From Oscillatoria sp. Prado101 (GTDB taxonomy: Bacteria > Cyanobacteriota > Cyanobacteriia > Cyanobacteriales > Oscillatoriaceae): 16,558 bases of DNA. Positions 1 through 16,558 of this stretch are shown one piece after another. The stretch spans positions 1 through 16,558 of the forward strand of contig JALOOK010000018.1 in the NCBI GenBank assembly GCA_025454445.1, given 5' to 3'. Every line of letters starts with the position of its first letter. Positions within the stretch are counted from its first letter, which is position 1. Under the pieces are notes generated by a model that saw only the letters and a list, made by a program, of their open reading frames with translations, had not been told where the DNA came from and did not search any database. The position numbers were made by a program, and so were the translations under genes.

Positions 1-119
1 TTCTTATCTTCAGGAGCTACAGCCTAGAAGAAATGAGGGAAAAAATCTTTACCGACAAATACCTCCTGACTTCCAGTGAGCTGAACGTCCTCAACCTGAT
101 TCTCTCCAAAGAAAAGTAG
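1..119 (+). CDS. Possible 3' end of a plus-strand gene entering from the left. The open frame from the window edge reads ...LIFRSYSLEEMREKIFTDKYLLTSSELNVLNLILSKEK* with stop TAG at 117-119.
   Basis: No in-frame stop between window start and 119 in frame 3. The frame ends exactly where the hairpin-repeat array begins, which fits a convergent arrangement with the 261-2414 gene. I do not recognise the protein. Confidence 0.25.
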   Translation, partial: LIFRSYSLEEMREKIFTDKYLLTSSELNVLNLILSKEK

Positions 120-246
120 AAAAGTAGGGTGGGGAACGCGAAGCGTAACCCACCCCCTAAAGAAAAGTAGGGTGGGGAACGCGACAGCGTAACCCACCCC
201 CCTAAAGAAAAGTAGGGTGGGGAACGCGACAGCGTAACCCACCCCA
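111..246. repeat. Tandem array of three copies of a ~43-45-bp unit, GAAAAGTAGGGTGGGGAACGCGACAGCGTAACCCACCCCCCTAAA. Each unit can fold as a hairpin with a GGGTGGG/CCCACCC stem and an inner ACGC/GCGT stem around a GACA loop.
   Basis: Read directly. Unit starts (GTAGGGTGGGG) are at 124, 167 and 212. The first copy has GAAGCG instead of GACAGCG. There are no unique spacers between units. The array lies between the stop of the minus-strand gene at 261 and the putative plus-strand stop at 119. Confidence 0.85.
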
Positions 247-260
247 CTCAGCTACTCAGC

Positions 261-2414
261 TTAAATTTGACCGCAGCGCTGATTGGCGGATACAGCTTCC
301 TGCATCTTTTTGGGATAGGGCAGATTGAGATTATTCATTAGCTCGATGAACTGGCTGCGATTGCGCCCCGCCAACCGGGAATTCCAGCACTTTTCTTCCC
401 CAATAGTAGACACTGTTCGCCCCTGATAATCGTGACAGGGATACACCAAAGTGTCATCCGGTAACGTGAATAACTTCTGCGTTACCGCATCATACAGCAC
501 ACCGGCATTGCCATTCTGAAAGTCAGTACGACCGCAACCCCGGATCAGCAGCGCATCGCCGGTTAACAGGTAAATGCCGTCGATAAGATAAGCATTATGG
601 CTGTCAGTATGACCCGGAGTGGCAATAGCGCGGATCTGTACGCTTCCCAGTTGCAAAATCTTCCCATCCGCCAGATAGTCATCCGCACAAGTCACCTCAG
701 TATTTTCCGGCAAAATAGCCAGACAGCCCGTAAGTGTCCTCAGCTTGTCTGTGCCGGTGATGTGGTCGGCATGGATGTGGGTTTCCAGGCAATAGTGCAG
801 AGTTAGATCCAACTCTCGCAATAGCTGGAGATCGCGTTCCACTTGTTCCAACACAGAATCGACTAGGATGGCTGCTTTGGTTGAGCAATCGGCAATCAGG
901 TAAGTGTAGGTACTCGATTCTTTATCGAAAAGTTGACGCAATAGCATAGTAGATTTATGCAACGCAAACGATAGATTTCCAGTACAGCAATCCCCCGCAA
1001 CAGGTGTATCGGGTTTGGGACTGAGGGATTTCAGCAGCTCCTGCGCAAGAGTTGCAGCCTGAACCCGAATTTCGGGAACGGCTGTAGTTTCCCAAAGATT
1101 GCCCTTGCGGGGTGTCCCCAAAGTATACAGCAGTTCCGATACCTTTCCGTCTGCATCGATTAGAGCACCGTTTGGGGCTGTGTCAATTCCGATTGACAGC
1201 TCGTTGAAGCGGATCAGCTTTTGTTCTTGCAAGCTGGCGAGCAACGGGTGCTGCAATTTGCGATAGTTAGAGTTTGAGCCGGTGCAGTTCAGAATCCGGC
1301 TGACCAACAGCACTTTCTCTGTCTGCGTCCCCCGTTCCAGAATCGTCACAGCCACCCGATTTTCCAACTCGCGACAGCTTTGAATCCGACCGGCATAAGG
1401 GTTCAGTTGACCGGACTGCACTGTCGCATCCAGCAGCAGCGCTATTTCTTCAGCAATGCGATGCCGGCATACTTCCCAGTAAGCCTTGACGTGGCGCAAA
1501 AATCGCTTTTGTTCCTGCAGTGGAAGCGCTTGCCAAACTTGTTGAGTCACTGGGCGGAGCGCGTCGATTACCGCACGCCAGTCGTGCCCTTGCGCCACCG
1601 CCGCTCGCACTTCTCGGCGCACCAGATGAAGGATTTCTCGCGAAGTTTTTGGTGCGGAATATGCGTTAATAAATGCCGGATAAGGACTTGTTTTCTTGTG
1701 ACCGGCAGGCATCAAACCGTGACGCGAGACGGCATATATTTTTCCCTGAAATCCTTTTTGGTGCAAGGCAGCGACCGCATCGGCCATCGTCAAGCCGGTG
1801 CCCACCACCAAAATAGAATCGTCTGGATTCAGACCGGCAACCGCATCAGCTTCCCAGCCATCTCTCACATAGCGAGCGCAGTTCTCCAGACCGGCAAGCG
1901 GTTCAGGCAGGGATGCTGGGAAATTTCCCAGCGCTAGCACAGCCTTTTGAACGCACAAACACTCACCGCTGCTAAGATAAACCCTGATGTCGGTTCCTGT
2001 CGTTTCCAGGGCAACCGCTTCACCCACAATCCGCTGCAACCGCACACCAGCTTGAGCGTTTGTTTCCGCTTCCTTCAGCAGTGCCCGCACGTAATCCCCA
2101 TAAACCTGGCGCGGGACGAAAGAGGATGCTGTACTTTCAGCATACCCGTTGCTTTGCAACCAGTTCAGGAAGTGAGCCGGTTCGTCCGCAAACGCACTCA
2201 TCTTCCCCGCCGGCACGTTAAGCAAATGGCAGGATATTTCCGTCCCGTAAGCCACTCCTCTGCCTACTTCCGGACTCCGCTCAATCAACTTAATCCCCAC
2301 CGGCACGGTTGCATTCCGCAAAAGATTTGCTGCAACCAGACAACCGCTAAAGCCGCCTCCAATGATAGCAATATCACCCGGAGGAATCGTCATGTTTTTG
2401 CCGCCGTCGTTCAT
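261..2414 (-). CDS. Fusion protein. N-terminal ~480 aa is a FAD/NAD(P)-binding (Rossmann GGGFSG) oxidoreductase-like domain. C-terminal ~230 aa is an ETHE1/Blh-type persulfide (sulfur) dioxygenase of the metallo-beta-lactamase fold.
   Basis: The N-terminus reads IAIIGGGFSGCLVAANLL, a dinucleotide-binding motif. The C-terminal half carries the HxHxDH metal motif (THIHADHITG) and aligns well with ETHE1-type persulfide dioxygenases (I am comparing against human ETHE1 from memory, not a search): GDALLIRGCGRTDFQNGNAGVLYDAV...LPDDTLVYPCHDYQGRTVSTIGEEK...FIELMNNLNLPYPKKMQEAVSANQRCG. The true start may be the internal Met at residue 8 (MTIPPGD...). Confidence 0.85.
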   Translation of the reverse strand: MNDGGKNMTIPPGDIAIIGGGFSGCLVAANLLRNATVPVGIKLIERSPEVGRGVAYGTEISCHLLNVPAGKMSAFADEPAHFLNWLQSNGYAESTASSFVPRQVYGDYVRALLKEAETNAQAGVRLQRIVGEAVALETTGTDIRVYLSSGECLCVQKAVLALGNFPASLPEPLAGLENCARYVRDGWEADAVAGLNPDDSILVVGTGLTMADAVAALHQKGFQGKIYAVSRHGLMPAGHKKTSPYPAFINAYSAPKTSREILHLVRREVRAAVAQGHDWRAVIDALRPVTQQVWQALPLQEQKRFLRHVKAYWEVCRHRIAEEIALLLDATVQSGQLNPYAGRIQSCRELENRVAVTILERGTQTEKVLLVSRILNCTGSNSNYRKLQHPLLASLQEQKLIRFNELSIGIDTAPNGALIDADGKVSELLYTLGTPRKGNLWETTAVPEIRVQAATLAQELLKSLSPKPDTPVAGDCCTGNLSFALHKSTMLLRQLFDKESSTYTYLIADCSTKAAILVDSVLEQVERDLQLLRELDLTLHYCLETHIHADHITGTDKLRTLTGCLAILPENTEVTCADDYLADGKILQLGSVQIRAIATPGHTDSHNAYLIDGIYLLTGDALLIRGCGRTDFQNGNAGVLYDAVTQKLFTLPDDTLVYPCHDYQGRTVSTIGEEKCWNSRLAGRNRSQFIELMNNLNLPYPKKMQEAVSANQRCGQI

Positions 2415-2654
2415 ATATCTTTCCTTAGAAAGCGCTACATCGATTTTTTCGTTTCCGTCTTTCCTCTCCCTTTCCCCGTGCGATTTGTAGACTCACCAGA
2501 AGAATCGATAATAAGACCTGTTTCTTGCCGCCGTTAGCCCAGTTAGTAAATTAAAACGAAAGCAACGCACGTGAAAACCCAGGAATTGAACGATCCAATC
2601 CCCACATAGAAAGAGCGAGTATTTTAAACTTGCAAAAGTTAACAGACTTATTTC

Positions 2655-2700
2655 CTAGTTCCTAGGCTCCCTTACGGGAAGCCTGCTGCTACAGCCTAGG
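2655..2700. promoter_or_regulatory. Inverted repeat GTTCCTAGGCT ... AGCCTAGGAAC (11-bp stem, ~25-nt loop that contains a small CCC-TTAC-GGG hairpin). It lies in the 280-bp gap upstream of the dioxygenase-fusion gene and overlaps the 3' end of the upstream YeeE gene.
   Basis: Read directly from the sequence. Its function is unknown. It could be a transcript 3' hairpin or an operator. Confidence 0.3.
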
Positions 2701-3187
2701 AACGAGAATCTGGAGGCGCAGCCTCGAATTGAAAATTGTGCGAGGTGTCTGTTTTATCCAATCCCCCCCCCTCAAACCGAGTCGAGAACCATTTGTAAGT
2801 CAGCGAACCGGCAATCATCGCGATTACAAACAACACGGGATTCCAGATGCCCAGCACCAGCGCCGTGAGGGCCGGTCCGGGGCAGTAGCCAGCAATTCCC
2901 CAACCGGCACCGAAAATAACCGCACCCAAAATCAATTTTCTGTCGATGGTTTTCCGAGCCGGCAATTCAAACTTTTCCGCATAAAATGGGTGCGGGAGAC
3001 GCAACACGAAACGGAACGCAATCACCGTCACCCCAACCGCCCCGCCCAGCACAAACAGCAGCGTCGGGTCCCAAGCGCCGGTGACATCCAAGAAACCGAG
3101 AACCCGCTCGCGGTCAATCATCTGGGAAAAACCCAAACCCAGACCAAACAGCACACCAGAAATCAAAGCTACCAGATTTTGTTTCAT
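2696..3187 (-). CDS. YeeE/YedE-family (Sulf_transp / DUF395-type) membrane protein, half-size. Predicted thiosulfate/sulfur-compound transporter subunit.
   Basis: 163 aa, multi-pass hydrophobic, with a GxxxG-rich segment GAVIFGAGWGIAGYCPGPAL typical of YeeE/YedE half-transporters. It is paired with a second half-size paralog immediately upstream. Confidence 0.75.
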   Translation of the reverse strand: MKQNLVALISGVLFGLGLGFSQMIDRERVLGFLDVTGAWDPTLLFVLGGAVGVTVIAFRFVLRLPHPFYAEKFELPARKTIDRKLILGAVIFGAGWGIAGYCPGPALTALVLGIWNPVLFVIAMIAGSLTYKWFSTRFEGGGLDKTDTSHNFQFEAAPPDSRS

Positions 3188-3213
3188 ATTTTCACCCTTA
3201 AATATTGTTGCTG

Positions 3214-3246
3214 AGAAACCCGGTTTCTTAAAGAAACCGGGTTTCT
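3214..3246. promoter_or_regulatory. Perfect 33-nt palindrome AGAAACCCGGTTTCTT-A-AAGAAACCGGGTTTCT between the two YeeE-family cistrons.
   Basis: The reverse complement of the left 16-mer equals the right 16-mer exactly. No T-run follows on the coding (minus) strand, so it is unlikely to be a simple intrinsic terminator. It could be an intercistronic RNA hairpin or a dimeric regulator site. Confidence 0.5.
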
Positions 3247-3299
3247 GGGGCTCACTTCATCCAACTGAACACCGCTATATTCTCGCCTCTGGCTCTTTC

Positions 3300-3728
3300 T
3301 CATGTTGACAAAAAAAGCACATGGCGAGTCACGAAAACCGTGACGATCGCAGTGCCCAAAAAAGTGAGAACAGCCACCAGCGAGCGAAGCGAAAGTCTGC
3401 CCAGCCCACACACCCCATGTCCGCTGGTGCAGCCGTTGCCCATGCGCGTCCCGAAACCAACCAGAAAGCCGCCGGCAATCATCGCCCAAGGAGCGAACTT
3501 AGATGCCGGTGTCGGAGAGGGCGCGAGGACATATTCATAGAGTGCGCCCCCCGCCAGCAGTCCGCCCAGAAAAAGCCAGCGCCAGACAACGCCTGACGCT
3601 AAATTGAGGGCGCTGTTGAGCGTGCCACTAATCCCAGCAATCCGACCGTTGAATGCCAGCAGGACAGTCGCACTCGTGCCGATCAGCAAACCGCCCAGCA
3701 AGCCGGTCTCCCAGTTAAACTCTATCAT
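3300..3728 (-). CDS. YeeE/YedE-family membrane protein (half-size) carrying the conserved cysteine motif GNGCTSGHGVCG.
   Basis: 142 aa, hydrophobic. The GCTSGHGVCG motif matches the conserved cysteine-containing loop of YeeE/TsuA-type thiosulfate transporters. Its start lies 18 nt after the cysE stop, so it is probably in an operon with cysE. Confidence 0.8.
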   Translation of the reverse strand: MIEFNWETGLLGGLLIGTSATVLLAFNGRIAGISGTLNSALNLASGVVWRWLFLGGLLAGGALYEYVLAPSPTPASKFAPWAMIAGGFLVGFGTRMGNGCTSGHGVCGLGRLSLRSLVAVLTFLGTAIVTVFVTRHVLFLST

Positions 3729-3746
3729 TTGAACCCTCTGGAATCC

Positions 3747-4622
3747 CTAAATTCCAGCCCCATCGAGAAAGTCTTCAATCACCCCATTAGAATAGCACTT
3801 TTCGCTCTCCGTTTTTTCGCTAACCACCTGCACCGGGGGCGCATTGAATCCAGCTTGCAACTGGACAACCTGTTTCTCAAGCTCCTTGACCCGTTCAAAT
3901 AAAGCGCGAATCACCTCAGCTTCCACATCCCGCAGGTTGTTATGCTCCAGAGCATCAGCCCTCAACCCATTCAGACGAGTGATGCGCCCCGGAACCCCCA
4001 CCACCGTACTGTTGCTCGGCACATCCCGCAGCACAACCGACCCCGCACCGATGCGAACGTTATCGCTAATCTTAATATTGCCCAGTACCTTCGCCCCCGC
4101 TCCCACAACGACATTATTCCCCAGCGTCGGATGGCGCTTGCCCTTTTCCTTTCCCGTCCCCCCCAGAGTCGCTCCCTGATAAATTAGCACATAGTCGCCG
4201 ACAATAGCAGTCTCGCCGATCACCACTCCCATCCCGTGGTCGATAAACACCCCTTTGCCAATTTTAGCACCCGGGTGAATCTCAATACCCGTGAATAACC
4301 GGCTCAAGAAAGACAGGAAACGAGGCAGAAAAGGAATGCCCATACCGTGCAGCAAGTGCGCTACACGATGGCACCACAGAGCGTGCAATCCCGGGTAGCA
4401 AAACAGCACCTCCAGCCAGTTGCGGGCAGCTGGATCGCGCTGATAAATCGTTTGCCAATCAGCGATTAAAACACCGATAGGGTTAGCTTTGACTGGGCGA
4501 AAACTCTCTCCTCGGGAGGAGGCGTCAGGATACTTGGCTGTCTGGCTGTTTTGGGCTACTTCTGTCGGGTTTTGAGCGTTTTCGATCAGCACGTTTCGAT
4601 TACCTCCAGTAAATCCGTCCAC
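3747..4622 (-). CDS. cysE: Serine O-acetyltransferase (CysE), left-handed beta-helix hexapeptide-repeat acyltransferase.
   Basis: Contains [32 protein letters not shown]...[46 protein letters not shown]...[30 protein letters not shown], which are the canonical SAT N-terminal and hexapeptide motifs. The N-terminus may be shorter than the maximal ORF. Confidence 0.85.
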
Positions 4623-4905
4623 TTACCTTACTTACTAATGCTCCCTTGGAGCTTGCCCTGCCTTGAGGAAAAGCGGGACAATATCGTGTCCGTTCGTTCC
4701 CGATTTTCTATATCTGTAGGGGCGGGTTCGCCCGAAATATGTGTGACACAGAGAAGGGTTCTAATAAACCCGCCCCTCCCATAAAACAGCGCTACGAGCG
4801 GACTCGAACAGTAGGCCGGCATAATTAAGCCTAACATGGGTCTTCCCAGAAACCTGGTTTCTTGATGTTCTCTTTATTTCTGCTAACAAAGCTCCGAGGC
4901 AGCAG

Positions 4906-4930
4906 CTCCCCCTCTCCCCTTGTGGGCTAC
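4906..4930. repeat. Degenerate or partial copy of the C-rich/G-rich stem-loop dispersed repeat (CTCCCCCTCTCCCCTTGTGGGCTAC).
   Basis: Shares CCCTCTCCCC-TTGTGGG with the full copies at 4987 and 5075. Confidence 0.5.
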
Positions 4931-4986
4931 TGCTTATACACAAATCCCTCTGATCCCAATTTTCCATGAAGTTGGAAGAACCTCTT

Positions 4987-5036
4987 TCTCCCCCCTCTCC
5001 CCCTTGTGGGAGAGGGGGGTTGGGGGGGGTGAGGGG
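4987..5036. repeat. Full copy of the dispersed stem-loop repeat: CCCCCTCTCCC - CCTTGT - GGGAGAGGGGG, followed by the GTTGGGGGGGGTGAGGGG tail.
   Basis: 11-bp perfect stem read directly. The G-run tail has G-quadruplex-forming potential. Confidence 0.8.
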
Positions 5037-5074
5037 CTTTTCCTGTGGTCACATAGCCAAGATGTGTATAAACG

Positions 5075-5129
5075 GCAGCCCCTTGTGGGAGAGGGGTTGG
5101 GGGGGTGAGGGGACATTTATCATGTCCCC
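5075..5129. repeat. Second copy of the dispersed repeat (CCCCTTGTGGGAGAGGGGTTGGGGGGGTGAGGGG), fused to an 8-bp perfect hairpin GGGGACAT-TTATC-ATGTCCCC at 5109-5129.
   Basis: Read directly. It lies 19 nt from the 3' end of the cysteine desulfurase gene. Confidence 0.75.
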
Positions 5130-5147
5130 TTGTGCGGACAATTCCAG

Positions 5148-7079
5148 CTAACGGAAGCGAATAGTCCGCAGGACTTCTACTAGGGTGTCGATTTCCTGAC
5201 AAGTGTTGTAAAAAGCCAGCGAAGGACGAACCGTACCCGTCAGATTATACCGCTGCATCGTCGGTTGAGCGCAGTGATGACCGGCACGCACCGCAATCCC
5301 TTCTCGGGCGAGGCGCTGCCCAACTTGTTCCACAGGGATGTCATCCAAAATAAACGACACCACGCTTACTTTGTGAGGTGCAGTACCAATTAGACGCAAC
5401 CCCGGAATCTGCGCGAGGCGTTTTATTGCATACTCGGTGAGTTGGTGCTCGTACCGTTCGATATTGCTCATCCCCAGGCGCGTGATATAGTCGATCGCCG
5501 CACCCAGTCCAACCGCATCAGCAATATTGGGCGTTCCCGCTTCAAATTTTGCCGGTGGTTCGCTGTAAATAGTTCTCTCGAACGTCACATGGCGAATCAT
5601 GCTTCCGCCACCCTGCCAAGGAGGCATATCCTCCAGGATTTCCCGTTTGGCGTACAGGACACCAATTCCCGTAGGCGCAAAGAGTTTGTGACCAGAAAAG
5701 GTGTAAAAATCGCAGCCGATCTCTTGAACATTAACCGGCATGTGAGAAACCGCCTGAGCCCCGTCAACCAGGACAACTGCGCCGTGCCGGTGGGCTATTT
5801 CCGTCATTTCCCGCACCGGCACAATTGTTCCGAGAGCGTTAGAAACCTGCGTGATGCCAACAAGGCGAGTGCGCGGACCCAAGAGTCGGGCGTATTCCTC
5901 TTGCATTATTTCGCCGCTATCGGTGACAGGAATAACCTTTAAAATTGCCCCCGTCTCTTGCGCCAGCATCTGCCACGGAACAATATTGGCGTGGTGTTCC
6001 AGCGTCGAGAGAACAATTTCATCTCCGGGCTGAATGTACTTGCGACCCCAGGTTTGCGCCACCAGATTAATCGCTTCTGTGGTTCCCCGCGCGAAGATAA
6101 TTTCCGACGCCGAACTCGCACCCAGAAACCGCTGCACCTTTTCCCGCGCTCCCTCATAAGCATCCGTCGCCCGCGCCGCCAGAGTGTGAGCGCCCCGGTG
6201 AATGTTGGAGTTGTCTCGCTGGTAGAACAGCGACAGAGCATCGATAACGCTTTGCGGCTTTTGAGTTGTGGCGGCGTTATCCAGCCAAATCAGCGGTTTG
6301 CCGTTGACTTTCTGGTGCAAAATCGGAAAGTCTTTGCGGATGGCGCTGACATCAAAGATTGCCCCCGACTCTAACCCCAGGTTTTCCACCGCAGGGGGAG
6401 ACAGGAAATAGAACGACGGCTGAGGTGTTTCCCGCACCGGCGAATGGCTCGCTTGCGCTCCCGCATCCGCGAAAGCCCTTTGCAAATCCGGCTCGCTGAG
6501 CGGGAAAATAGAAGTTGGCCTTGGAGGCGCGGGAATCGAATTGCCCGGAATTCCGCTGGGGGAAATCTGAGGAATCTGGGCGTACATCTGTTGTGCAACC
6601 TCTTTCAAAGCTTCCACATTCAAGGCATCGCTGGAAGCGGAAGTTGTTGGCAGCGCAACAGCCGTTTCGCGGGAATGTGATCCAGGTTCCAGCTGTGCGA
6701 ATGCCTGAAACAGGTTTGCCTCCAGATTTGCGGTCAACATCTGCGACCGCAACTGTTTGGCCATTGCGGTCAATGCGTCCTCGCTGCCGGCTGATGCCGG
6801 TGCGGAGTGCCCAACTAAGTTCCCAACTAATGCCACCCCACTCATGCCAGAACTATTGATTTCAGACGGCGGAACAGTCCCGATAGTTTCCACTGCCGGC
6901 TGGGTGCCGGCTGGGGCTGCCACACCGCTGCCATTTGGCACAGCGGTATAAAACTGATTCGCGAGCGATTCTACAGACAGCGGGTCAAAGATCGCACTGT
7001 CGCCGGTGGGAGGTAATGGCACATCTTGAGGCGGGTGATGTCCGTTTTTACCGTTATGCGCTGGCATATTGATAGTCAT
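5148..7079 (-). CDS. Class II (SufS/CsdA-like) PLP-dependent cysteine desulfurase with a ~230-aa disordered, Pro/Ser/Ala/Gly-rich N-terminal extension. Predicted encapsulin cargo.
   Basis: The catalytic domain spans roughly 5148-6373, and the low-complexity N-terminal region (no recognisable fold) spans 6374-7079. The domain matches SufS-type enzymes, including the active-site region RAGHHCAQP, the PLP-lysine region FYTFSGHKLFAPTGIGVLY, and TLEHHANIVPWQ. The gene overlaps the upstream shell gene by 26 nt. This architecture matches cysteine desulfurase cargo of Family 2 encapsulins as described in Synechococcus elongatus SrpI/CyD. Confidence 0.85.
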   Translation of the reverse strand: MTINMPAHNGKNGHHPPQDVPLPPTGDSAIFDPLSVESLANQFYTAVPNGSGVAAPAGTQPAVETIGTVPPSEINSSGMSGVALVGNLVGHSAPASAGSEDALTAMAKQLRSQMLTANLEANLFQAFAQLEPGSHSRETAVALPTTSASSDALNVEALKEVAQQMYAQIPQISPSGIPGNSIPAPPRPTSIFPLSEPDLQRAFADAGAQASHSPVRETPQPSFYFLSPPAVENLGLESGAIFDVSAIRKDFPILHQKVNGKPLIWLDNAATTQKPQSVIDALSLFYQRDNSNIHRGAHTLAARATDAYEGAREKVQRFLGASSASEIIFARGTTEAINLVAQTWGRKYIQPGDEIVLSTLEHHANIVPWQMLAQETGAILKVIPVTDSGEIMQEEYARLLGPRTRLVGITQVSNALGTIVPVREMTEIAHRHGAVVLVDGAQAVSHMPVNVQEIGCDFYTFSGHKLFAPTGIGVLYAKREILEDMPPWQGGGSMIRHVTFERTIYSEPPAKFEAGTPNIADAVGLGAAIDYITRLGMSNIERYEHQLTEYAIKRLAQIPGLRLIGTAPHKVSVVSFILDDIPVEQVGQRLAREGIAVRAGHHCAQPTMQRYNLTGTVRPSLAFYNTCQEIDTLVEVLRTIRFR

Positions 7080-13336: not shown

Positions 13337-14194
13337 TTATTGCGCTTCCCCTGAAAGCAACCGCCGGCAAAACTCCAGCGCAACCGCCACCTGACTGGTT
13401 TGCTGCGGGTACTCAACAGCCGGTCGCTTGATCAGCACCACCGGCACCCCCAACTCAGCCGCAACCGCCCGCTTGACATCCTCTCCCCCCGCAGTTCCAG
13501 ACGCCTTCGCCACCACCAGCGAAATTTGCCACTGTTTCCACAGCGCCCGTTCCAACTCAGCCGACACCGGCGGGCGCAGAGCCACCAGCCGGTCAGGCGT
13601 GAACCCCGCATCCAGAGCCGCTTGCAGCGCCGGCAGCGAAGGCAGAATCCGGGCGAACAGCGTACAGCGCTCTTGCCACGCGCGGAACAGCGGCAGAGGC
13701 CGGTAGCCCACAACCAGCAGCACCCGCTCTCCCGCCAGACACTCACCCACCAGCAGCGTCTCAAAACTGTCCACCTCTGTAAGGATTTGGGATGGGGGAT
13801 AGTGGGTGCCGGGATTGGGGGATTTGGGGATTTGGGATGGCCAGTCGGAACTCACCGGCGGGCGTTCGTAGCGCAAATAAGGGATGTCACACTCCCTCGC
13901 CGCCGCCACCGCCAGCTTAGAAATCTCCACCGCATAGGGGTGGGAGGCGTCCAAAATCGCAACAATTCCCTGCTCTTGCAAAAACTGCCGGATTTGACCG
14001 GCATCCAGCCTCCCCACCCACACCCGCAGCACAGGAGCCGGTGGGTAGAGCCCCCTAGCCGCTTCCGTCGTCACCGAAATCGTGCAGGGCAACTGCGCCG
14101 CCACCATCGCACTGGCCAGCAGGGCACTTTCGCTCGTCCCGCCAATCAGCCAGACACGCCGATTGTTGGGCATGGGGCATGGGTAATTGAGCAT
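13337..14194 (-). CDS. cobK: Precorrin-6A / cobalt-precorrin-6A reductase (CobK/CbiJ) with an unusual ~25-aa in-frame low-complexity insertion.
   Basis: Family-typical N-terminus RVWLIGGTSE, plus ...ILDASHPYA... and ...VVLIKRP... motifs. The probable true start is the Met at residue 8 (MPNNRRVWLIGG). The insertion (DWPSQIPKSPNPGTHYPPSQIL) is encoded by a GGGATTT-type repeat at ~13783-13850. Confidence 0.7.
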   Translation of the reverse strand: MLNYPCPMPNNRRVWLIGGTSESALLASAMVAAQLPCTISVTTEAARGLYPPAPVLRVWVGRLDAGQIRQFLQEQGIVAILDASHPYAVEISKLAVAAARECDIPYLRYERPPVSSDWPSQIPKSPNPGTHYPPSQILTEVDSFETLLVGECLAGERVLLVVGYRPLPLFRAWQERCTLFARILPSLPALQAALDAGFTPDRLVALRPPVSAELERALWKQWQISLVVAKASGTAGGEDVKRAVAAELGVPVVLIKRPAVEYPQQTSQVAVALEFCRRLLSGEAQ

Positions 14195-14286
14195 TGGGCG
14201 TGGGGCATTCTTCTATTCTTGGCGTCCTTGGCGTCTTGGCGGTTTTATTACCATAACCTCTCCCATTTGTCAACCACCTAAACCCC

Positions 14287-15009
14287 TCAAAATCGGACTT
14301 TATAAAGCCCGAACAGCTCCCCGGGCTGACGCTTAACCACCTTAGCACCGGCAGCCTTAATCAGCTTTTCCCAAGCGGGCAAAGGTTCGAGGAACACCTC
14401 AGCGCCCATATAGGTTTCCAGGATGGCCCAGTTTTCCGCCAGGGGGGTATCTGGGTCGAGGACATCAAAAACGAACTCGCCTGCCGGTTTGAGGGCCAGC
14501 TTCACCTCAGCCATAACAGCAGCCCAGTAATCGAGAGGGAAATAGCAGCTAAAGCCGGTGGCGATGGCCATATCGAACTGAGCCGGCTCGCAGTGGAGCT
14601 GGTGAGCCGGTGCCAGTTCCACTCCTTTAAAGAGCTTGGAGTTGAGCTGGGGTCCGCGAGCGTTGAGGGTGTCCCGGGCCACGGAGCTGATTTCGTGACC
14701 GTAAAAGAAAGCGCCCCAGTCGCGCCAGGGATAGATGAGAAAGCTGGCACCGCAGCCGATATCCAAACAGCGCTGGTTTTTTTGGGGTTGGGCGATATCC
14801 CAGAAAGGGGAAGTTGTTTTAGATTGGAGAGTGCCGGCAGCCCAGTCGCGAAAGATGGGCATAGCCTCGACTTCGGAGGGCAGGTCGAAGGGCTCGCCGC
14901 CATACTGCCGGTTAAAGCGAGAGGCGACCTGGGCCACTGTTGACTGCCAGCGGTCGGAGGTGCCGGCAGCAAAGAGGTTGCCTAAAGGAGAATCGGGCTT
15001 TTTAGACAT
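14287..15009 (-). CDS. Class I SAM-dependent methyltransferase.
   Basis: Motif I is CLDIGCGASFLIYP (GxGxG-like), with a downstream acidic-loop pattern. 240 aa. The substrate is not identifiable. Confidence 0.7.
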   Translation of the reverse strand: MSKKPDSPLGNLFAAGTSDRWQSTVAQVASRFNRQYGGEPFDLPSEVEAMPIFRDWAAGTLQSKTTSPFWDIAQPQKNQRCLDIGCGASFLIYPWRDWGAFFYGHEISSVARDTLNARGPQLNSKLFKGVELAPAHQLHCEPAQFDMAIATGFSCYFPLDYWAAVMAEVKLALKPAGEFVFDVLDPDTPLAENWAILETYMGAEVFLEPLPAWEKLIKAAGAKVVKRQPGELFGLYKVRF

Positions 15010-15016
15010 TAAGGCC

Positions 15017-15235
15017 CTAGCGCCCCTTGAGAGCTTTGGTAAAGTTCTTGCGATAGCTCTGGTTGGCCACCCACAGCACCGGCCACAGCACAGACAGCTT
15101 CAGCCGGTTGGGCAGGCTTCGCTCGAAGTTCGTCCGCTCAAACCCCTGCCAGAACTTCCACACACCGACTGCATAACCGACCAACAACGCCAAGAAGATT
15201 AATTTCATGATCGATTCTCGAAGCAACTGTTTCAA
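15017..15235 (-). CDS. Small hypothetical membrane protein (72 aa, one TM segment LIFLALLVGYAVGVW), possibly co-transcribed with the methyltransferase.
   Basis: Its stop lies 7 nt upstream of the methyltransferase start. The composition is hydrophobic then basic. No recognisable family. The start may be the internal Met at residue 10. Confidence 0.4.
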   Translation of the reverse strand: MKQLLRESIMKLIFLALLVGYAVGVWKFWQGFERTNFERSLPNRLKLSVLWPVLWVANQSYRKNFTKALKGR

Positions 15236-15751
15236 TCCCGTTGCCGGGATTCAGGGCCAAAAATATTCTTTTCCTGCCGCCTGCTGAAATTATTATCGCA
15301 TTGATATGGGCTTCTTTGCACAACCGGGACGCTGCGGTGCGGTCTGCCGGCCCACCGGCACGCAAAGGGGGCTGGCACTTGGGGGCGGGCGGGCGAATGC
15401 AACCCCTGTGGTGCAAAAGACAGCACTGCCAAGAGCAAAGGGCAGCCTTAATGCCCCCGCACTCCAAGGCGTTAAACACTCCTTAAGTTTATGGAAATAT
15501 CATAGATTCAGTCTTATGCTGTGGATAGCTTTTGGCACACCGGCAAAATTCTCTTTCCCCATATGCTGCGTTCGTGCGGCTGGTGGCAGGAGCGATCTTC
15601 CAACCATATACTGCCAGCTTGTTTTAAGTAGATTTACTGATGGGCGGCAGCGGCAGCGGGGCTGAAAGCAACTCAGGCAAGGGCGCGTTTGAGGGCGTCG
15701 CACAGTAGAAGGATGATTTCAACTTTTTCCCTCATGGAAAACCCGCTCAAG

Positions 15752-15801
15752 CCTCCCCCTACCCGTAAACGGGGAGGGGGGTGGGGGGTGGGGTTCACCC
15801 C
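15752..15801. repeat. Fifth copy of the dispersed stem-loop repeat family (CCTCCCCCTACCCGTAAACGGGGAGGGGGGTGGGGGGTGGGGTTCACCCC).
   Basis: Contains the inner hairpin CCCGT-AA-ACGGG with C-rich/G-rich flanks and the G-run tail GGTGGGGGGTGGGG. It lies in the 700-bp divergent intergenic region upstream of the plus-strand nucleotidyltransferase gene. Confidence 0.6.
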
Positions 15802-15932
15802 ACGGGAGGTGCAGCGCCCATTGAAGCGGCATGCCACAAGACCGAGCATCATAGGAAACTAGAGTAGAGACAAGCCGAACGCGCCGGAATCCCTACGATG
15901 CAACCAAGCGTGCGAAAAGCCAAGGAGGACTT

Positions 15933-16558
15933 ATGCGAGCAGTGCTGATGGCTGGAGGATCGGGGACGCGGCTCAGACCGCTGACTTGCGATCTGCCCAA
16001 ACCGATGGTGCCGATTTTGAATCGACCCATTGCTGAGCACATCATCAATCTTCTCAGACGGCACCAGATTACAGAAATCATTGCCACGCTGCACTATCTG
16101 CCGGACGTGATGCGCGACTACTTCTCTGACGGCAGCGACTTCGGCGTGCAGATGACCTATGCGGTGGAGGAAGACCAGCCCCTGGGGACGGCAGGCTGCG
16201 TCAAAAATATTGCCGAACTGCTCGAGCAAACCTTTCTGGTGATTAGCGGAGACAGCATCACCGACTTTAATTTGAGCGCCGCCATTGCCTTTCACAAGCA
16301 CAAGCGCTCCCTAGCGACGATTGTTTTGACGCACGTCCCGAATCCGATAGAATTCGGCGTCGTGATTACCGATAAAGATGGCCGCATTCGGCGGTTTTTG
16401 GAAAAGCCATCCACCAGCGAGATTTTTTCCGATACAGTCAACACCGGCATCTACATTTTAGAACCGGAAGTCCTGGACTACCTGCCAGAAAACAAAGAGT
16501 GTGACTTTTCCAAAGACCTGTTACCCCTGCTGCTGGAAAAAGGCGACCCCATGTACGG
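15933..16558 (+). CDS. Sugar-1-phosphate nucleotidyltransferase, mannose-1-phosphate guanylyltransferase-like. 5' part only; the gene runs off the window end and is not in the supplied ORF track.
   Basis: The ATG at 15933 is preceded by a strong Shine-Dalgarno AAGGAGGA at 15922-15929. The translation reads MRAVLMAGGSGTRLRPLTCDLPKPMVPILNRPIAEHIINLL...GTAGCV...LVISGDSITDFNL...EKP...NTGIYILEPEVLDYLP. The G-x-G-T-R-L nucleotide-binding signature and overall colinearity fit GDP-mannose pyrophosphorylase-type enzymes. There is no stop before 16558. Confidence 0.8.
   Translation, partial: MRAVLMAGGSGTRLRPLTCDLPKPMVPILNRPIAEHIINLLRRHQITEIIATLHYLPDVMRDYFSDGSDFGVQMTYAVEEDQPLGTAGCVKNIAELLEQTFLVISGDSITDFNLSAAIAFHKHKRSLATIVLTHVPNPIEFGVVITDKDGRIRRFLEKPSTSEIFSDTVNTGIYILEPEVLDYLPENKECDFSKDLLPLLLEKGDPMY

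Follow-up and report, generated by a model that had tools for sequence, protein, structure and literature searches.

Tandem arrays of GTAG-headed hairpins beside the MVP and encapsulin genes of Oscillatoria sp. Prado101 and their relation to REP elements

The stretch of DNA analysed here (the window) comprises 16,558 nucleotides of Oscillatoria sp. Prado101 (contig JALOOK010000018.1, positions 1 to 16,558) and carries two short arrays of hairpin-forming repeats, each immediately 3' of a minus-strand gene (Table 1). Array A (3 units, 124-245) is separated by 15 nt, counted from its last hairpin, from the stop codon of a 717-aa open reading frame (ORF). Array B (4 units, 9037-9206) lies between a gene for a major vault protein (MVP) homologue and the promoter region of an encapsulin operon, with unit B4 19 nt from the MVP stop codon. 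A preliminary description of the window, made from the sequence alone, had reported the two arrays, their position 3' of minus-strand genes at a distance of 10-20 nt from the stop codons, and a common core, GGTGGGGAACGC[C/G]ACAGCG; our analysis bears out each of these statements. It had overlooked that array A also adjoins the stop codon of a convergent plus-strand gene, which codes for a helicase-like protein. Tandem Repeats Finder (TRF) delimits array A at 118-245 (period 45, 2.9 copies, 97% matches) and array B at 9036-9202 (period 42, 3.9 copies, 76% matches, 11% indels). The two arrays belong to one repeat family. With up to three mismatches, the core GGTGGGGAACGCSACAGCG has six matches in the window and 6/6 fall within arrays A and B; shuffled sequences give 0.01 expected matches, and none of 200 shuffles reached six. 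The seventh unit, A1, has a 1-nt deletion. The peptide AVAFPTLL, which had been noted in translations over both arrays, is correctly reported but trivial, since the underlying DNA is common to both. The overlapping ORFs that span array B (8928-9221 and 8957-9205) were rejected as coding sequences and are artefacts of the repeat.

Each unit is an imperfect palindrome of 30-38 nt headed by GTAG. On the plus strand, (A)GTAG is followed by a G-rich arm (GGTGGGG or GGTGGGTTA); a short inner stem with its loop comes next (ACGC-GACA-GCGT or GCG-ACAG-CG), and then the C-rich arm TAACCCACC. Sister lineages keep the form GTAG-GGTGGGTTA-GCGACAGCG-TAACCCACC, and their stem has 12 bp with one bulge and the loop ACAG (unit A1 of locus L057, O. 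princeps). The GTAG tag is exact in 5/7 window units, in most units of the relatives and in units of all three unlinked loci described below; GTAC, GCGG, GCAG and GTGG occur as variants in the window and its relatives. Most array B units, and those at site A in lineage L055, have a 4-nt insertion, GGCA, in the 3' arm. All units of both arrays, in each of the lineages, share one orientation and are arranged head-to-tail.

Folding of the minus-strand RNA, which the preliminary description had proposed as a check, predicts hairpins in 7/7 window units. The minus strand at 100-270 (array A) folds at -86.2 kcal/mol, compared to -52.9 +/- 4.2 kcal/mol for shuffled sequences (z = -8.0), and at 9020-9230 (array B) the values are -101.5 and -89.5 +/- 4.3 kcal/mol (z = -2.8). 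Folded singly, the 7 units of the window and 13 taken from relatives formed hairpins on both strands (20/20), with energies between -9.6 and -29.9 kcal/mol. RNA of the minus strand, on which the 717-aa gene and MVP are encoded in sense, folds more stably than that of the plus strand in 16/20 units, because several substitutions yield G.U instead of A.C. The units are not independent of one another, and as a hint of function this difference is only suggestive.

The GTAG head of the units led us to suspect, and to test, that they are repetitive extragenic palindromes (REPs). REP-associated tyrosine transposases (RAYTs) are IS200/IS605-like Y1 HUH transposases that recognise REPs as single-stranded DNA and cut at GTAG. 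GTAG-tagged REPs have been described in cyanobacteria, mainly between convergent and co-directional ORFs, in a study that also cites the action of E. coli RayT on single-stranded hairpins and its cutting at GTAG (Di Nocera et al., 2013; PMC3733652). Cyanobacterial subclasses of class 2 TnpA-REP are described as having GT[AG]G REPs on their flanks (Quentin et al., 2018; PMC6006769). The decisive test came from the flanks of cyanobacterial RAYT genes. With the E. coli RayT from a published supplement as the query, plasmids of Kovacikia minuta and Gloeocapsa proved to carry RAYT homologues. Both genes have inverted GTAG-GATGCGTTA...TAACGCATC hairpins on their flanks, and the helix of these REPs is that of the Oscillatoria GTAG-GGTGGGTTA...TAACCCACC unit with two compensatory pairs (A-U to G-C and C-G to G-C). 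A homologue search with the Kovacikia RAYT protein returned 2703 cyanobacterial-type RAYTs at E <= 1e-10, and RAYTs of this kind are thus widespread among cyanobacteria. One of these genes, in a 7.78-Mb cyanobacterial genome (L075), is flanked by the REP GTAGGGTGCGTTAGCGACAGCGTAACGCACC. This REP is identical to the Oscillatoria unit GTAGGGTGGGTTAGCGACAGCGTAACCCACC in 29/31 bases; the remaining two positions pair with each other in the stem and form one compensatory change. A profile built with nhmmer from the Oscillatoria units alone recovers three REPs around the L075 RAYT gene (E ~1e-6). Head-to-tail REP arrays with a period of 47 nt and 9.6 and 3.2 copies bracket the gene, which is the same architecture as that of the window arrays. 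In two sister-lineage loci, GTAG is also the commonest tetramer at hairpin borders (13/64 and 11/70 hairpins; background rate 0.002 per position), where it heads unrelated stems as well (GTAGGGGCGGCCCC..., GTAGAGACGCGAT..ATCGCGTCT and GTAGGACAGGCG...).

Judged by their sequence, the units are REP elements of the GTAG-tagged superfamily, and the arrays are ordinary tandem REP clusters. As far as the searched literature shows, the family had not been catalogued for Oscillatoria before. The best overall explanation, which we consider likely, is that GTAG REPs have multiplied by local tandem duplication and that any effects on RNA are a by-product of the hairpin. In Gloeocapsa sp. PCC 7428, the RAYT homologue on plasmid pGLO7428.01 (L074 601-1160) is unannotated and has an in-frame TAG near 935; it is probably a pseudogene, with GTAG REPs still intact on its flanks.

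Orthologous sites provided insights into how the arrays grew. The 717-aa protein is also encoded on a 152-kb JGI metagenome contig (L025) that is 99.99-100% identical to the window. In its flanks, array B shares 92-94% identity with Oscillatoria sp. PCC 10802 and O. princeps RMCB-10, which makes the source an Oscillatoria-like filamentous cyanobacterium. Site A has three units in the window and two each in L055, L057/L058 (O. princeps), L065/L066 and L071. Site B has four units in the window, about 1.5 in PCC 10802 and about 2.5 in L065, with units at both edges of the site in O. princeps. Both sites keep units in every lineage sampled; relatives of another genus (76-78% protein identity) have other neighbours and no unit. 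By this comparison of sequences, the sites are old within the clade and the arrays are fluid.

The array A spacer AAAGAAAAGTAG duplicates the final codons of the convergent helicase-like gene, and AAAGAAAA(GTAG) corresponds to these codons plus the stop. In L071 the two units are identical, and their junction, CCCCACT followed directly by AAAGAAAAGTAG, is a plain 44-bp tandem duplication with 2-nt microhomology at its bounds. L065 is a mosaic of a window-type unit A1 and a princeps-type unit A2; window units A2 and A3 combine a left arm of the L065-A1 (window) type with a loop of the princeps type, and the site-A units of L055 have a 3' arm typical of array B. The borrowed spacer, the simple duplication and the mosaic units show that the arrays grew in place, with the marks that slippage or unequal crossing-over and conversion leave, rather than those of repeated transposition. 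The sites illustrate neatly how head-to-tail REP arrays are assembled, as the spacer is visibly the neighbouring gene's last codons and five lineages show successive states, with two to three units, chimeric units and other repeats inserted. Array A also bears on the end of a coding sequence. In L055, L057, L065 and L071 the helicase-like gene terminates with the TAG of the GTAG tag, its stop codon standing right beside the stem. Only in the window does an 8-nt micro-duplication (110-127) shift the stop codon 8 nt away, so that in the sampled lineages without it a REP tag supplies the stop codon of a 1245-1259-aa gene.

Site B of the O. princeps lineage (L057 2725-3979, equivalent to L006 4982-5646) is ~520 nt longer than that of the window. 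The extra sequence between the edge units consists largely of other GTAG-headed hairpins (GTAGGAGCGGTGCGG..., GTAGGACAGGCG..., GTAGGGTGTGTTGCC... and GTAGGGGCGGCCCC...). The idea that the arrays mark insertion hot-spots thus gains some support, the inserted sequence being mostly other hairpin repeats, and at these loci REP clusters seem to draw in further small repeats.

These observations are consistent with a simple course of events. Before the split of the Oscillatoria lineages sampled, each of at least three 3' intergenic regions would have received a single REP, the original copies having been dispersed, we infer, by a RAYT that acted on single-stranded hairpins and cut at GTAG. Slippage or unequal crossing-over would then have duplicated the REP in place; the ‘spacers’ would be identical because a few flanking bases were duplicated together with it. 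Copy number would drift between close relatives, and units would become mosaics of each other. The copies may be relics, because the RAYT searches described below yielded none for this organism and no lineage-specific insertion was seen. The precise placement of the arrays, from which elements acting at transcript 3' ends had been suggested, is explained by REP biology and duplicated flanking DNA rather than by a dedicated design.

The preliminary description had also proposed a genome-wide search for the core. The exact 19-mer core was sought in 185,579 species genomes and among the metagenomes collected at JGI. Oscillatoria sp. PCC 10802 and O. princeps RMCB-10 have one match each. In the JGI metagenomes, the word marks arrays A and B of the same population and one new locus, C, so that the source population has it at three loci. 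Matches outside the two Oscillatoria genomes and three metagenome contigs are single chance matches in unrelated high-GC DNA. Locus C (L054) is a single unit, tctGTAGGGTGGGGAACGCGACAGCGTAACCCACCCC, with unrelated flanks, between a convergent alpha/beta-hydrolase gene and a 159-aa ORF. The copies at A, B and C have no common sequence outside the unit. Arrays A and C lie between convergent genes and array B between co-directional genes; the expected position downstream of genes was found at 3/3 loci, but a fixed orientation was not, since the unit of locus C is oriented opposite to its nearest upstream gene, compared with those of A and B. The exact-word counts are a lower bound, as known variants such as GGGTGGGTTAGCG escape the exact word and site A in PCC 10802 and RMCB-10 carries variants that the 19-mer cannot match. 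A profile of 19 units found no sites beyond the known ones in 192 kb of cyanobacterial loci, and blastn of array A against the PLSDB plasmids gave no match.

A role of the units as RNA hairpins at 3' ends, either as terminators or as stabilisers, is plausible. E. coli REPs have documented roles as mRNA 3' stabilisers and transcription attenuators. Any such function here would be a by-product of the hairpin: a unit in the 3' untranslated region (UTR) of the 717-aa gene or MVP is predicted to fold at -12 to -30 kcal/mol and, once transcribed, would serve as an exonuclease barrier or partial terminator. On the minus strand, each hairpin of array A is followed by the U-rich tail UACUUUUCUUU, and the combination is a plausible intrinsic terminator. 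A U tract is absent from array B and locus C; because of this, array B would more likely be an exonuclease barrier or a partial attenuator before the encapsulin operon. We have also considered that the number of hairpins after MVP tunes read-through into the sulfur-regulated encapsulin operon, that the hairpin at the stop codon of the helicase-like gene throttles translation termination, and that strains switch between states, in the manner of a contingency locus, as units are rapidly gained and lost. REPs near stop codons reportedly affect translation in E. coli, a point that bears on this idea alone. Such a tuning role would be a long shot.

Several observations weigh against REPs with by-product RNA effects. 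Classical REPs are present in tens to hundreds of copies per genome, and from the searches above the family looks low-copy, at about three loci. No match to six RAYT/TIRYT proteins was found by tblastn in the 192 kb of cyanobacterial loci, a result that is uninformative, and among the best 120 cyanobacterial RAYT clusters none is on either Oscillatoria contig (8.63 Mb and 6.93 Mb). Across five lineages, the family showed no new insertion specific to any one of them, leaving current mobility unsupported. On the RNA side, array B has no U tract, and a consensus scan for terminators and promoters listed neither array, with total sites not above those of shuffled sequences. Low copy number, the lack of new insertions and the RAYT not found in the 192 kb examined nor, among the best 120 clusters, on Oscillatoria contigs would all be expected if the arrays were inert relics, that is, REPs deposited once whose RAYT has gone, leaving neutral minisatellites without effect on their neighbours. 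The degenerate tags and stems in array B agree with this too, as does the speed at which units are gained and lost, and as an account of function neutral relics are a serious possibility. However, hairpins of -12 to -30 kcal/mol within 20 nt of a stop codon very probably form part of the transcript, where they would alter RNA decay or read-through with or without selection, and in 4/5 lineages the stop codon of the helicase-like gene lies within the GTAG tag, against the stem. Overall we hold it less likely than not that the arrays are inert. The opposite case is that of dedicated multi-hairpin terminators or 3'-UTR stability modules, maintained by selection and only incidentally similar to mobile repeats. 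Selection could account for arrays that start 15 and 19 nt after stop codons, for sites retained in every sampled lineage, for minus-strand RNA that is stabler than plus-strand RNA in 16/20 units through G.U pairs, for the U-rich tail after every hairpin of array A, and for the location of array B between MVP and the encapsulin operon promoter region, a sensible place for an insulator. However, inert DNA with a low deletion rate would be retained likewise, array B is without a U tract, both arrays fail the terminator scan, and the unit of locus C is oriented opposite to its nearest upstream gene. Such modules would also leave unexplained the GTAG tag, the RAYT-REP homology, with a unit 29/31 identical to REPs beside a RAYT gene elsewhere, and the variable unit number, which ranges from about 1.5 to 4 among close relatives with no number conserved. 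We therefore regard dedicated modules as improbable.

Two further explanations concern what the repeats might be at the level of DNA or as another class of array. By analogy with the bacterial interspersed mosaic elements (BIMEs) of E. coli, the units could be binding sites for proteins such as gyrase, IHF and Pol I, and the tandem layout would offer several sites. To our knowledge, no cyanobacterial protein that binds REPs is on record. Protein binding has been described for some enterobacterial REP clusters (PMC2817692), but REPs in BIMEs alternate in orientation and the units here are all head-to-tail, which makes this explanation very improbable. The constant orientation is also why we rejected E. 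coli-type BIMEs as a class for the arrays. Miniature inverted-repeat transposable elements (MITEs; 70-300 bp with terminal inverted repeats and a target-site duplication) were rejected as well, since each unit is a single 30-38-nt hairpin with no terminal inverted repeats or target-site duplication beyond it. The palindromic 30-38 nt repeat and its regular spacing could also suggest a degenerate CRISPR array or a novel gene for a structured small RNA. However, the spacers are 8-17 nt long and repeated or derived from flanking DNA, and neither cas genes nor Cas domains were found in the scanned window ORFs or in the genes called in 10-kb extensions on either side. The earlier judgement that the arrays are not CRISPR, made on the lack of unique spacers, thus holds. 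For a small RNA, there was no Rfam match at gathering thresholds over the window, permissive scans of the arrays gave only sub-threshold chance matches, and no promoter-like site adjoins the arrays. We give this last explanation next to no credence.

REPs that have multiplied by local duplication, our preferred explanation, can be compared with known systems. The units resemble cyanobacterial GTAG REPs and REPtrons in their GTAG head, GC-rich stem of 9-12 bp and small loop, in their location between convergent or co-directional ORFs, and in head-to-tail clusters that repeat flanking DNA. They differ in the low number of known loci, only about three per genome, in the outcome of the RAYT searches, which gave none in the 192 kb or, among the best 120 clusters, on the Oscillatoria contigs, and in several units, mainly of array B, that have the GGCA insertion in the 3' arm and degenerate tags. 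With the REP/BIME system of E. coli and its RayT (YafM) they share a GTAG-tagged imperfect palindrome 3' of genes; beyond the tag, however, there is no sequence similarity, BIMEs alternate in orientation, and E. coli has hundreds of copies. CRISPR arrays are similar in having regularly spaced palindromic repeats of ~30-37 nt, but the arrays here have no unique spacers, cas genes or leader. Cyanobacterial CRISPR arrays were formerly called ‘LTRR’. Intrinsic (Rho-independent) terminators also have a GC-rich hairpin just 3' of a stop codon, and array A has a U-rich tail; unlike them, the units are a dispersed repeat family with a conserved tag, and B and C lack a U tract. Pseudomonas REPINs are likewise RAYT-associated short palindromes that also occur in tandem clusters, but they are described as doublets of inverted REPs that move together as one unit (Bertels and Rainey, 2011; PMC3116915), and the arrays here contain no inverted doublets.

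Table 1. Features at arrays A and B, with positions in the window.
Feature	Positions	Strand	Evidence and details
3' end of the 1259-aa AAA/Helicase_C gene, cut by the window edge	1..119	+	Pfam, translation; ends ...LSKEK, stop codon TAG 117-119; full gene at L025 12296-16075
8-nt micro-duplication AGAAAAGT x2.2	110..127	+	TRF; separates stop codon from first hairpin
Unit A1	124..155	+	GTAG 124-127, hairpin 127-155, 1-nt loop deletion (GCGAAGCG)
Spacer CCCTAAAGAAAA	156..166	+	AAAGAAAA(GTAG) part copies the last codons of the plus-strand gene; spacer again at 200-211
Unit A2	167..199	+	GTAG 167-170, hairpin 170-199
Unit A3	212..245	+	GTAG 212-215, hairpin 215-244
Micro-repeat ACTCAGCT x2 (246-261), then stop codon of the 717-aa gene (261-263)	246..263	-	TRF, ORF calls
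717-aa FAD/NAD-binding + metallo-beta-lactamase fusion gene	261-2414	-	ORF and domain scan
Unit B1	9037..9074	+	GTAG 9037-9040, body GGTGAGGAACACGACAGCGTAACCGGCACCACCC
Unit B2	9076..9115	+	degenerate tag GTAC 9076-9079
Unit B3	9124..9164	+	degenerate tag GCGG; best hairpin of array B
Unit B4	9166..9206	+	GTAG 9166-9169
Major vault protein (MVP) homologue	9226..11892	-	stop codon 9226-9228

The minus-strand genes between the two arrays and beyond array B form a conserved neighbourhood. In the window (2696-11892), the gene for an 888-aa MVP homologue, which has the full set of Vault repeat and shoulder domains, is immediately upstream of a family-2 encapsulin operon. This operon codes for an SrpI-like shell protein that includes a cNMP-binding domain, for a cysteine desulfurase that has a long N-terminal extension and for a hexapeptide acyltransferase; two sulfur-transport-like membrane proteins and the FAD/NAD-binding and metallo-beta-lactamase fusion are further members. 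The MVP-encapsulin gene order is kept in the long contigs of three Oscillatoria lineages (the window, O. princeps and L065). Annotation of such loci calls for caution, as the arrays give spurious ORFs and a CRISPR-like periodicity beside MVP and the SrpI-type encapsulin operon. To the left of the window, L025 (12296-19256) codes for the 1259-aa AAA/Helicase_C protein, which has weak STAND-NTPase-like matches, and then for a 1003-aa protein. The gene pair is conserved in all lineages sampled. The 1003-aa protein has no Pfam match, and a PADLOC scan of both large proteins gave nothing significant.

Other small repeats are also found at these loci. L025, which represents the same strain (99.99% identical), has 180 nt extra between the acyltransferase and Sulf_transp genes (L025 8488-8668, compared with window 3747-3779). 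The extra sequence consists of a 147-nt insert full of CCCCTCTCCC/GGGAGAGGGG hairpins and a 33-bp direct duplication of window 3747-3779. From the alignment, the difference is a recent indel polymorphism that involves another small-repeat family. G-run/C-run hairpins (CCCCCTCCCC...GGGAGGGGG and GAGGGGGGTTGGGGGG) in intergenic positions of the window (4909-5128, 12613-12647 and 15755-15789) are related to this insert. Perfect palindromes of 15-17 bp, AGAAACCCGGTTTCT-N3-AGAAACCGGGTTTCT, are found in many intergenic regions, sometimes in tandem (window 3214-3249, L005 3064-3098, L054 1014-1046 and L057 12906-12938). They constitute a second family that is more abundant than the GTAG units and has no GTAG tag. 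Between MVP and a pentapeptide gene (window 12084-12465) there is a MITE-like nest of inverted repeats, with 32-nt arms separated by 243 nt, a GTAGGGGCGAAGCAT palindrome inside and GGAGCATCCCACTTTTG arms outside; its outer motifs recur as half-copies upstream of array B, at 8737-8805.

In the O. princeps locus L057, a 171-aa ORF without a Pfam match and a 143-aa DUF29 ORF (16069-16584 and 20260-20691) are present, and GTAG-tagged hairpins border the gaps. Both ORFs occur in the O. princeps and L065 lineages and are absent from that of the window; they were rejected as Y1 transposases after a Pfam scan. About 5 kb past the right end of the window (L059 3185-5029), a gene codes for a 614-aa group II intron reverse transcriptase/maturase with RVT_N, RVT_1, GIIM and HNH domains.

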